A stretch of DNA of 11,155 nucleotides from a virus. Taxonomy: Duplodnaviria; Heunggongvirae; Uroviricota; Caudoviricetes. The stretch lies in the IMG/VR virus record IMGVR_UViG_2529292887_000008. One strand, given 5' to 3'. The notes beneath the pieces were generated by a model that saw nothing but the letters and a program-made list of their open reading frames with translations, did no database searches and was not told where the DNA came from. The translations under genes were made by a program, and so were the position numbers. Position 1 is the stretch's first letter, and each line of letters starts with the position of its first letter. Shown here one piece after another: positions 2,298 to 3,552 of this stretch.

Positions 2298-2477
2298 TTA
2301 TTCTTTGGGTTCAATACCGCGTTGCTGTAATTCTTTTCGGATTATTCGTTTTATCCAAGCAGCTAAAGAGTCATCACCGTCTTGTTGTTGTGCTTTTTCC
2401 ATCTTTTCCCGTAAGTCAGGATCTAAACGGAACTGGAAAGGAGGATTACCACGCCTTTCATTCTTGTGTGTTGACAC
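2298..2477 (-). CDS. Ribbon-helix-helix (Arc/CopG-like) DNA-binding protein, 59 aa, putative GTG start; absent from the ORF track
   Basis: Manual minus-strand translation: VSTHKNERRGNPPFQFRLDPDLREKMEKAQQQDGDDSLAAWIKRIIRKELQQRGIEPKE; predicted beta-strand FQFRLD plus two helices parallels the RHH protein at 2983-3162. In-frame ATG at 2402 would remove the beta-strand, so GTG 2477 is preferred. Confidence 0.45.
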   Translation of the reverse strand: MSTHKNERRGNPPFQFRLDPDLREKMEKAQQQDGDDSLAAWIKRIIRKELQQRGIEPKE

Positions 2478-2498
2478 GTCAATTACACCCCATATAAT
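2471..2498 (+). promoter_or_regulatory. Near-consensus sigma70 promoter (TTGACA - 16 bp - TATAAT), plus strand
   Basis: -35 TTGACA at 2471-2476 and -10 TATAAT at 2493-2498; overlaps the putative start of the minus-strand RHH gene. Confidence 0.45.
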
Positions 2499-2542
2499 GT
2501 GTTTATGTGTATATACACATTACACACAACTAGCACAAAAAA

Positions 2543-2578
2543 CAACGCCCCGCAGTGATGGGAACACATACGGGGCGT
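2543..2578 (-). terminator. Hairpin with downstream U-tract on minus strand (putative terminator between modules); also 5' part of repeated leader element copy A
   Basis: Stem ACGCCCCG (2543-2550) / CGGGGCGT (2571-2578); on the minus strand followed by TGTTTTTTGTGC. Confidence 0.4.
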
Positions 2579-2665
2579 CTAACCAAACCATTAATTGAGG
2601 TAACGATTATGGTTATAAAAGAGCATAGCTTACTCTTTATACACACACAAACGCCCCGGAAACGG

Positions 2666-2688
2666 AATAATCCGTTTCATAGTTCGGT
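2666..2688. terminator. Perfect 8-bp hairpin GAAACGGA-ATAA-TCCGTTTC just past the stop of the 2698-2925 gene
   Basis: Stem-loop read directly from sequence, 10 nt beyond the minus-strand CDS end; the flanks are T-rich on the plus strand and GU-rich on the minus strand. Confidence 0.4.
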
Positions 2689-2697
2689 TTTGTGCAC

Positions 2698-2925
2698 TCA
2701 TCCTGGCGGTCGGTTTTTGCCGGATTTAAGCCGCCGTGGGTATTTATCGACAAAATCTTCAAGGGCAAATTTTTCTGGTGGCACTAAGCGCGGCGCTGGT
2801 GGTGGTATTTTTGTTCTGGTTAGTTCTTCCTCAAGTCTGGCGCAGGCTTCTGACTGCCTTTGCCGGATGATTTCATCATCTTGCGTTTGCGAGTCTTGTA
2901 TTGGTGATAGTGTGTTGTTGGTCAT
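2698..2925 (-). CDS. Small hypothetical protein (75 aa), paralogue of 2037-2240
   Basis: MTNNTLSP...EKFALEDFVDKYPRRLKSGKNRPPG; shares motifs and the upstream conserved leader with the 67-aa paralogue. Confidence 0.5.
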   Translation of the reverse strand: MTNNTLSPIQDSQTQDDEIIRQRQSEACARLEEELTRTKIPPPAPRLVPPEKFALEDFVDKYPRRLKSGKNRPPG

Positions 2926-2930
2926 GATAC

Positions 2931-2980
2931 TGCCCTGTAAAGCAATGCGCCGTAGTACCTCACACCACGGCGCTGATAGT
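2931..2980 (-). promoter_or_regulatory. Conserved ~45-bp intergenic element (copy 1) between RHH gene and small-protein gene
   Basis: CCTGTAAAGCAATGCGCCGtAGtaCCTCACaCCACGGCGCTGAT; differs from copy 2 only at loop positions of the GCGCCG/CGGCGC hairpin. Confidence 0.45.
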
Positions 2981-2982
2981 GA

Positions 2983-3162
2983 TTATTCTGATTCTTTGGC
3001 CTTGCGACGCTGGCGGTATTCAACTTCCCGCTTTAATGCAGCTGTAACAAACTGCCCTGTACTTTCGCCGGGCATTTTTACCGCCTCAACATTGTTCATA
3101 ACTTCATGTGGAACCCTTGCCGCAACTGTTTGTGATTTTGCGTTTACTGCTTTTGTCGCCAT
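2983..3162 (-). CDS. Ribbon-helix-helix (Arc/CopG/MetJ-like) DNA-binding protein, 59 aa from ATG 3162 (ORF track starts at GTG 3171)
   Basis: MATKAVNAKSQTVAARVPHEVMNNVEAVKMPGESTGQFVTAALKREVEYRQRRKAKESE: beta-strand TVAARV, helix A, G-x-S/T turn, helix B; SD GAGGGG 8 nt upstream of ATG 3162. Confidence 0.6.
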   Translation of the reverse strand: MATKAVNAKSQTVAARVPHEVMNNVEAVKMPGESTGQFVTAALKREVEYRQRRKAKESE

Positions 3163-3212
3163 GTTGAGCACCCCTCATAAAAAACAAATGCAGTATGCAG
3201 GAAAAAAAATAA

Positions 3213-3288
3213 GTGTTCAACACTTGACGTGTTTAACACCTCGATTTAAATTGGTGTTCAACACCTTATTTAGGCAAGGTGTTGAAAC
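3213..3288. promoter_or_regulatory. Operator array (4 copies of palindromic GTGTT-N-AACAC) overlapping a plus-strand promoter
   Basis: GTGTTCAACAC 3213-3223, GTGTTTAACAC 3229-3239, GTGTTCAACAC 3254-3264, GTGTTGAAAC 3279-3288; candidate -35 TTGACG at 3224-3229 and -10 TAAATT 3247-3252 between the divergent RHH gene and the replication operon. Confidence 0.5.
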
Positions 3289-3354
3289 GACGAAACCCCG
3301 CACTGTAGGAGCAGTAACGGGGCTTCTAACCAACAACGTAAACGAGGAGCCGTT

Positions 3355-3552
3355 ATGGTTGCTGTAAATCATATACCACACCTTGTACACACACAAACTG
3401 CCTTTGTGTGGCGTTTTCTGGCACTGAGTGCCGGAGAATCTCAAATCATCCACGTAACCGCCTGGACGGAACGCGAAGCGCGTAGCCGTTGCCCGTCCGG
3501 TTGTGTTGCTGTATTTGCCGCCCGTATTCGTCAGGGGGTATGCCGTGCTTAA
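3355..3552 (+). CDS. Hypothetical protein (65 aa), first ORF of rightward operon
   Basis: Strong SD GAGGAG 5 nt upstream of ATG 3355; the first ~45 nt belong to a repeated leader element (see findings), so coding status is uncertain. Confidence 0.35.
   Translation: MVAVNHIPHLVHTQTAFVWRFLALSAGESQIIHVTAWTEREARSRCPSGCVAVFAARIRQGVCRA

Follow-up and report, generated by a model that had tools for sequence, protein, structure and literature searches.

A truncated duplicate of an icd-like leader and a predicted cis-antisense RNA in an Escherichia coli phage-inducible chromosomal island

Results

Two tandem repressor modules precede an icd-like gene

The window, by which we mean the whole 11,155-nt stretch of DNA analysed (IMG/VR record IMGVR_UViG_2529292887_000008), is an E. 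coli phage-inducible chromosomal island (PICI), a phage satellite. Its genes follow the order int (1-1230), alpA (1605-1793, with a match to PF05930 AlpA), two tandem repressor modules, an icd-like gene, primase and capsid genes. At least 80% of the window is found at 90-97% identity in 13 complete genomes, and the RefSeq annotation of near-identical islands names an integrase, a primase, a major capsid protein, a decoration protein and a small terminase. The succession int, alpA, primase/rep, capsid and small terminase is that of Gram-negative and capsid-forming PICIs. No portal or protease gene was seen within the 11-kb window and a BLAST search against phage genomes gave no match.

Each repressor module consists of two small minus-strand genes and a rightward promoter, with a ribbon-helix-helix-like gene as the promoter-proximal one in both cases. 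Module A contains a small gene at 2037-2240 (phrog_21027, 2.2e-12) and a repressor-like gene, RHH-A, at 2298-2477 (phrog_228 Arc-like repressor, 1.5e-6); its match to NF041551 (5e-4) lies under the curated cut-off. Module B contains a small gene at 2698-2925 and a gene of the YlcI/YnfO ribbon-helix-helix family, RHH-B, at 2983-3171 (NF041551, 59.5 bits with a cut-off of 30; phrog_949, 7.8e-22). We read the ribbon-helix-helix proteins of both modules as repressors; a PDB sequence search with the repressor-like protein gave no significant match. The rightward promoter of module A, P_A (2471-2498, plus strand), is a perfect 12/12 consensus promoter (TTGACA, 16 nt, TATAAT), just as the original prediction had it, and the 5′ end of the divergently oriented RHH-A gene overlaps its -35 hexamer. 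The corresponding promoter of module B, P_B (3224-3252, plus strand), reads TTGACG, 17 nt, TAAATT. Palindromes surround both promoters and are probably the operators for the two ribbon-helix-helix proteins: three palindromes of the GTGTTCAACAC type (3213-3264) lie on either side of P_B, and downstream of P_A, at 2507-2520, there is a palindrome of 14 bp, TGTGTATATACACA.

Two further kinds of hairpin are found on the leftward operons. In both modules a conserved GC-rich hairpin GCGCCG...CGGCGC followed by AUUGCUUUAC (minus strand, 2262-2288 and 2947-2973) separates the repressor-like gene from the small gene downstream of it, and looks like an internal attenuator or terminator of these operons. 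A terminator-like hairpin also follows the module B operon; it lies at about 2659-2680 and not at 2666-2688 as first proposed.

The icd-like gene lacks an upstream C4 RNA

The icd-like gene (3355-3552, plus strand) encodes 65 amino acids of which residues 17-60 match the Icd-like family NF033153 with 64.7 bits (cut-off 25). It is the first gene after the regulatory region and heads the rightward replication/packaging operon, with primase and the remaining genes downstream. In position it corresponds to kil of P4, which likewise comes first and encodes 65 aa, and whose product begins with MATT as does a subclass of these Icd-like proteins. The protein also matches positions 127-186 of the 188-residue phrog_29966, and since this is the C-terminal part of that family, long eta-like versions with a C-terminal Icd part are evidently annotated in phages. 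A scan of a species-representative genome collection with the Icd protein returned one locus only. Within the gene itself a terminator-like hairpin is present at 3390-3420 (plus strand; CACACAAAC-TGCC-TTTGTGTG followed by GCGTTTTCTG, with a GCGUUUUCUG tail), which was also called in the related island L006 and is absent from icd genes located after a C4 RNA.

In P4 and in three sister islands (L080, L083 and L086) the isrK and C4 RNAs are encoded directly upstream of the homologous gene, an arrangement already noted for such islands (PMC10111431), and with the C4 model these four served as positive controls (72-79 bits). The models for C4 (RF01695), isrK (RF01394) and c4-a1b1 (RF03163) found no match in the whole window at E values up to 1, nor within 2480-3460 at E values up to 10, and no family was detected when the window and the leader region were scanned against Rfam. 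The window, devoid of isrK and C4, thus belongs to a subfamily that is missing the C4/CI RNA system in front of the icd-like gene.

In many related islands (L001, L007, L009, L012, L019, L023, L025, L048, L051, L059, L063, L070, L077, L161 and L163) a further icd-like gene lies downstream of the first icd, with a C4-type RNA ahead of it; this unit is absent from the window. In these second units the heptamer of the C4 loop and the nucleotides immediately 5′ of the gene's Shine-Dalgarno (SD) sequence covary, for example CCAGATGA with TCATCTGG or CTACAGT with ACTGTAG. The loop of the GC-rich hairpin in front of the window's icd-like gene, ACTGTAGGAGC (3300-3314), is identical to one C4 target variant (L012). 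Pairing of this kind is unlikely to be general: complementarity of 8 nt or more was found in just one of 16 distinct combinations of C4 loop and hairpin, and C4 targeting of the leader hairpin was discarded as a general mechanism.

The leader of the icd-like gene is repeated in truncated form

A repeated leader element had been proposed for this region, composed of a GC-rich hairpin, TCTAACCA, an SD sequence, ATGGTT and a downstream TACACACACAAAC, and all of these motifs are indeed in place in both copies. The hairpins are located at about 2546-2577 in copy A and 3296-3322 in copy B, the latter being the leader of the icd-like gene. They are followed by TCTAACCA at 2578-2585 and 3325-3332, its sole two copies in the window with 0.21 expected by chance, and by ATGGTT at 2609-2614 and 3355-3360, each time downstream of an SD sequence. 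The 3′ motif TACACACACAAAC (2640-2652 and 3386-3398) starts exactly 31 nt after the A of the ATG in both copies, as had been claimed. No further match to it exists in the window even when one mismatch is allowed (0.01 expected; two copies reached in 0/200 shuffles). Over 165 aligned columns the two copies have a mean column identity of 78%. Leader B occurs in 1093 of 5426 complete E. coli genomes, while the copy A region (2560-2760) is matched over at least 80% of its length in 120 of them.

The sense part of copy A (2578-2652, plus strand) comprises TCTAACCA, the SD sequence GAGG (2597-2600), the ATG at 2609 and 15 icd/kil-type codons ending in TACACACACAAAC. Copy A thus keeps P_A, the leader and these 15 codons (MVIKEHSLLFIHTQT), and then joins the 3′ end of the second module, where the frame continues with GCCCCGGAAACGGAATAATCCGTTTC, the tail of the module B operon. 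Only the 5′ arm of the intragenic icd hairpin is retained. Copy A is not a member of the Icd-like family NF033153 because just codons 1-15, ahead of the domain, are present. The junction between CAAAC and GCCCCGGAAACGG (CAAAC followed by GCCCCGG) is identical in all 21 copies found. A leader 78% identical to copy A is carried by an intact 65-aa icd gene in L087; the codons specific to copy A itself occur in the truncated form only (13 IMG/VR contigs). Copy A is very probably a duplicate of an icd/kil-type 5′ end that has been cut. The shared junction and the intact homologue in L087 indicate that at this position a further regulatory module was placed ahead of one that was already there. Two islands depart from this configuration. 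In L089 the junction lies further to the right, the truncated copy running through the whole intragenic hairpin before module B begins (L089 2480-2620), and L053, which has no copy A, shows a deletion between two AACGCCCCG direct repeats (L053 2540-2600).

The conserved structure of the leader is that of the minus strand

Structure was compared on the two strands using 21-23 distinct hairpin variants, 45 distinct whole leaders and, for pair counts, an alignment of 28 sequences. The hairpin alone folds with a mean of −23.4 kcal/mol as minus-strand RNA and −17.5 kcal/mol as plus-strand RNA, the minus strand being the more stable in 19 of 21 variants. For the whole element the means are −34.0 and −23.9 kcal/mol, respectively, with the minus strand favoured in all 45 leaders. 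In the window the minus-strand folds reach −40 kcal/mol for copy A and −45.6 kcal/mol for copy B, corresponding to z-scores of −5.8 and −6.0, as against −4.3 and −2.5 on the plus strand. In the 28-sequence alignment 97.8% of the paired cells can pair on the minus strand, compared with 85.8% for the same positions on the plus strand, a comparison that favours the minus strand insofar as the consensus structure was derived on it. Sixty cells are G•U pairs on the minus strand and none would be G•U on the plus strand. Both-side changes were seen at 7 pairs, and the observed values were reached by none of 500 shuffles while slid controls were 39-46% paired; the sequences compared are closely related and mosaic, and these counts represent non-independent events. 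Pairing of the hairpin is maintained through compensatory changes and, in L080, even through a complete replacement of the stem.

Two hairpins are formed by the minus-strand RNA in every leader type. Hairpin 1 exposes an anti-SD sequence (CCUC or CUCC) in its loop and has an outer stem in which A(A/G)CCA pairs with UGGUU. Its 3′ arm is UGGUUAGA, the complement of TCTAACCA, which pairs with the complement of AUGGUU. Hairpin 1 thereby explains the presence of two conserved motifs, TCTAACCA and ATGG(T/C)T, and the T/C difference in the latter is tolerated as a G•U pair on the minus strand only. Hairpin 2 is the GC-rich hairpin of the original prediction with its U-tract, and on the minus strand it constitutes a terminator with a stem of 14-16 bp. 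Of the ten nucleotides past the hairpin, an average of 5.5 are T on the minus strand, compared with 1.0 for the plus strand, and the U-tract is confined to the minus strand. For the homologous site in L006, a terminator scan called a minus-strand terminator of 15 bp. We consider it likely that the minus strand specifies a functional RNA structure with a terminator.

When the window was scanned with a covariance model, R1, built from these leaders, exactly two matches were obtained, each of them on the minus strand; P4 and the islands with C4 only gave none. The first, at 2531-2618 (94.9 bits), contains a predicted antisense RNA, asRNA-A (2534-2615), with hairpin 1 (CCUC loop), the terminator hairpin at 2546-2577 and the U-tract; its 5′ end was deduced from the position of a -10 hexamer described below. 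The second, at 3279-3364 (84.8 bits), contains predicted asRNA-B (3281-3361), which covers the SD sequence and the AUG of icd.

It is conceivable that the element acts instead as part of the mRNA, as a stabilizing 5′ UTR hairpin or a leader-peptide attenuator, and that no antisense RNA exists. The hairpin does lie 35-65 nt downstream of both P_A and P_B, AACCA could pair with UGGUU and so hide the AUG, and the terminator-like hairpin 35 nt after the icd ATG would suit an attenuator. The wobble cells are nevertheless difficult to reconcile with such a role, since all 60 would be A•C mismatches on the plus strand and none is reversed, the plus-strand fold is weaker by about 10 kcal/mol in 45/45 leaders and the plus strand has no U-tract after the hairpin; we judge this explanation improbable. 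By inspection we also looked at CsrA sites, a boxA-like motif and a tRNA-like CCA end on the plus strand, but dismissed them as they are not common to all hairpin types and the structure belongs to the other strand. Of the earlier proposal, the duplicated regulatory element holds, while its placement as an RNA element on the plus strand does not. Since the conserved structure is that of the minus strand, the RNA element is likely a small RNA antisense to the leader itself, and neither a plus-strand leader RNA nor a plus-strand transcript antisense to the module.

A candidate promoter lies at a fixed distance from the start codon

Candidate promoters for the two antisense RNAs are found on the minus strand at 2622-2650 for copy A (-35 TTGTGT, complement of 2645-2650; 17 nt; -10 TATGCT, complement of 2622-2627) and at 3368-3396 for copy B (-35 TTGTGT, complement of 3391-3396; 17 nt; -10 TATGAT, complement of 3368-3373). 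The position of the -10 hexamer, TATGAT or TATGCT, is constant throughout the 23 distinct variants, with 13 nt between it and the end of CAT. In 21 of these variants TTGTGT is found 17 nt upstream; in L080 its place is taken by an extended -10, TGGTATGAT. The hexamers are the complements of a conserved CATA and of the ACACAA inside TACACACACAAAC, and thereby account for the two conserved blocks of fixed spacing with a diverged stretch between them. The candidate promoter matches just 7-8 of 12 consensus positions and overlaps codons. Lying in coding sequence, it could owe its conservation to codon constraint, and synonymous variation among these close relatives is too sparse to separate the two. 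Copy A is instructive in this respect: the residues P8 and L10, conserved in 57-58 of 58 intact genes, are lost from the truncated copy, which retains the hexamers and their spacing all the same. The Hfq-CRAC table for O157 Sakai (Tree et al. 2014) lists no sRNA in small P4-like elements, an observation of little weight given that the leader is unmapped in Sakai.

The fixed -10 hexamer also bears on whether the hairpin might be just a leftward terminator or insulator, in copy A ending the module B operon, with no dedicated small RNA. The minus-strand terminator features would be the same in that case, and copy A does lie downstream of the module B operon on this strand. However, the same hairpin is present in single-module islands which have no leftward gene to its right, and neither the -10 hexamer of all 23 variants nor a second conserved minus-strand hairpin showing an anti-SD loop in every leader type would be expected of a terminator. 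There is, in our view, little chance that termination is the sole function.

Long plus-strand frames span both modules

The plus strand opposite the repressor modules is occupied by two long open frames. ORF1 (1846-2598, 250 codons) runs antisense to module A and its TGA stop (2596-2598) overlaps the SD sequence of copy A. ORF2 (2609-3367, 252 codons) starts at the copy A ATG, crosses module B in antisense orientation and terminates 10 nt beyond the icd ATG, so that the two frames abut each other and icd. The 270-aa ORF reported earlier was recovered at 2555-3367 with a GTG start, the ATG at 2609 being in its frame. The products of ORF1 and of the 270-aa ORF are Cys/Ser-rich, of low complexity and without a match in Pfam, NCBIfam or PHROGs, which agrees with the earlier view that copy A is not the start of a conventional protein gene.

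The openness of these frames exceeds chance. When the four minus-strand proteins and their codon usage were held fixed, 3.2-3.7 stops were expected and none was seen (P = 0.011-0.016). With the intergenic parts included, the longest plus-strand run is 821 nt versus a null mean of 404 nt (P = 0.002), and the two longest runs sum to 1586 nt versus 708 nt (reached in 0/3000). Among 51 distinct related loci the median longest run is 924 nt on the plus strand and 327 nt on the minus strand, and in six of them (L020, L022, L047, L067, L078 and L087) the open frame continues into icd. In every two-module locus examined (module B 76-99% identical to that of the window), the frame of the copy A ATG extends for 615-1065 nt without a stop, and in those loci where the downstream start was located it ends between −27 and +13 nt from the icd ATG. 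The length of the ORF and its end point differ among islands.

Could this frame encode a functional protein and the minus-strand gene calls be spurious? A frame open beyond chance would be compatible with that, as would a 186-aa plus-strand 'hypothetical protein' which PGAP annotates over module A in one genome (L089 1950-2510). The same pipeline assigns two minus-strand genes in L001, so the annotation of module A is inconsistent between genomes. Against a protein-coding role, it is the minus-strand products that match NF041551, phrog_949 and the Arc-like phrog_228, the plus-strand products having no such match, and the length and end of the frame vary from island to island. The mean BLOSUM score per codon is likewise higher in the minus frame for all four genes, by small margins. 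Codon-position substitution counts were uninformative for the choice of strand because the third positions of ORF2 and of the minus-strand genes coincide. We regard a functional 270-aa protein as very improbable. The minus-strand genes are real despite the open plus frame, and the alternative posed at the outset, that either the 270-aa frame or the minus-strand genes must be invalid, was a false choice: the plus frame is open beyond chance and the minus-strand genes have family matches. ORF2 is probably translated as a 'spacer' frame in the style of P4 eta and does not represent a protein family.

A simpler explanation would be that copy A is an inert recombination scar, a recent leftover of an icd 5′ end, with the long plus frame as a by-product of its antisense position. 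The truncation is certain, copy A sequences are near-identical across islands as fits a recent origin, and the coincidence of third positions between ORF2 and the minus-strand genes is a frame relation known for few stops. Yet stops remain fewer and the longest run longer than under a null in which the minus-strand proteins are fixed, the frame is open across the two-module loci and ends near the icd ATG, and the promoter hexamers were retained where conserved codons were lost. An inert scar thus appears unlikely to us, and copy A is probably a truncated yet still working second cassette.

Discussion

Overall, the best explanation for this locus is in our opinion a pair of control cassettes with a cis-antisense RNA lock on icd, a reading towards which we lean with some reserve. 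Its conserved core would most likely be an unannotated sar-like cis-antisense RNA gene of about 80 nt. We infer that such an RNA is transcribed and represses icd, and that translation of the opposing frame has a role of its own.

In the model we propose, each copy would be a cassette that controls where translation of the satellite's rightward operon first starts, composed of a promoter repressed by a divergent ribbon-helix-helix protein, an icd/kil-type SD sequence and AUG, and an antisense RNA gene on the opposite strand. The antisense RNA would start about 6 nt inside the coding region, from the -10 TATGAT/TATGCT and the -35 TTGTGT, and pair with the SD sequence and the AUG, blocking translation of icd. 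Left untranslated, the icd mRNA would be terminated either at the terminator-like hairpin within the gene or by Rho, and an early stop within icd would leave the replication and packaging genes silent. Copy A very probably arose when a second repressor module was stacked upstream and an icd-type gene was cut after codon 15. It retains P_A, the SD sequence and the ATG, along with the complete predicted antisense RNA gene and its candidate promoter. Its ATG opens the 252-codon stop-free frame over module B up to the icd start. As this frame has no stop before the icd start, transcripts from P_A or alpA could remain translated until icd, much like those of P4 eta. Openness of the plus frame beyond chance, together with the eta precedent, makes us think that the copy A ATG does serve as a start codon, and that what matters about its frame is the act of translation and not the product. 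The divergence between copies A and B is concentrated in the would-be target-pairing stretch and the interior of the hairpin, for which reason the two antisense RNAs should not cross-react. The mechanism taken in its entirety seems to us about evenly balanced between right and wrong.

The immI region of phage P22 encodes the Mnt and Arc repressors together with the sar antisense RNA; PMC5415839 lists sar. The present locus resembles it in having a ribbon-helix-helix repressor divergent from a strong promoter, and a predicted short cis-antisense RNA that would originate inside the start of the controlled gene, pass over its ribosome binding site and end at an intrinsic terminator. Two traits of a sar-type RNA are seen here, the R1 matches on the minus strand (2531-2618 and 3279-3364) spanning the SD sequence and the ATG, and the 14-16 bp stems being followed by a U-tract. 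It contrasts with P22 in that there is no detectable sequence similarity, the target is of the icd/kil type instead of ant, the element is a satellite and not a phage, and the RNA is here a predicted one.

With the CI-kil system of P4 (seqA, seqC; eta/kil) and c4-icd-ant of P1/P7 the locus shares a 65-aa Icd/Kil-like gene at the same position of the element and, in our proposal, a control of translation start that is coupled to transcription termination. Unlike P4 and P1, the window has neither C4 nor isrK, and its RNA would be encoded in cis on the opposite strand instead of being processed from the same transcript. In P4 the immunity region is spanned by the long ORF eta, which has kil nested within it and whose translation prevents termination (PMC10111431). 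Here, too, the immunity region is traversed by a long upstream plus-strand ORF that has stayed open; ORF2 differs from eta in not being in frame with icd. ORF1 starts 52 nt after alpA, a gap which excludes coupling of the kind reported for P4. The type I toxin-antitoxin pairs symE/symR and hok/sok offer a further parallel, in that a small and possibly toxic protein would have its SD sequence and AUG under a short structured cis-antisense RNA. Unlike those genes, the icd-like gene heads a long operon and the main effect of repression would likely be on downstream expression.

More tentatively, and with somewhat less than even confidence, we suggest that a new family of two-hairpin cis-antisense RNAs, about 80 nt long, replaces C4/CI RNA as the immunity-type regulator of icd/kil in a large subfamily of E. 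coli islands, with several mutually non-complementary cassette types, tandem stacking of two independent locks and a plus strand that remains translatable opposite the repressor genes and so saves read-through transcripts.

How Gram-negative phage-inducible islands are silenced and switched on is poorly known beyond the requirement for AlpA, and if the proposal is true, locking the replication operon at its first gene by an antisense RNA would provide a concrete and testable switch. The RNA would be a widespread unannotated E. coli small RNA, with matches in O157:H7 and other Shiga-toxin-producing strains, and the mosaic leader variants could then be interpreted as types of immunity or specificity. 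For frames that are open antisense to real genes, it is translation itself and not the product that appears to be selected, a point of relevance for genome annotation.
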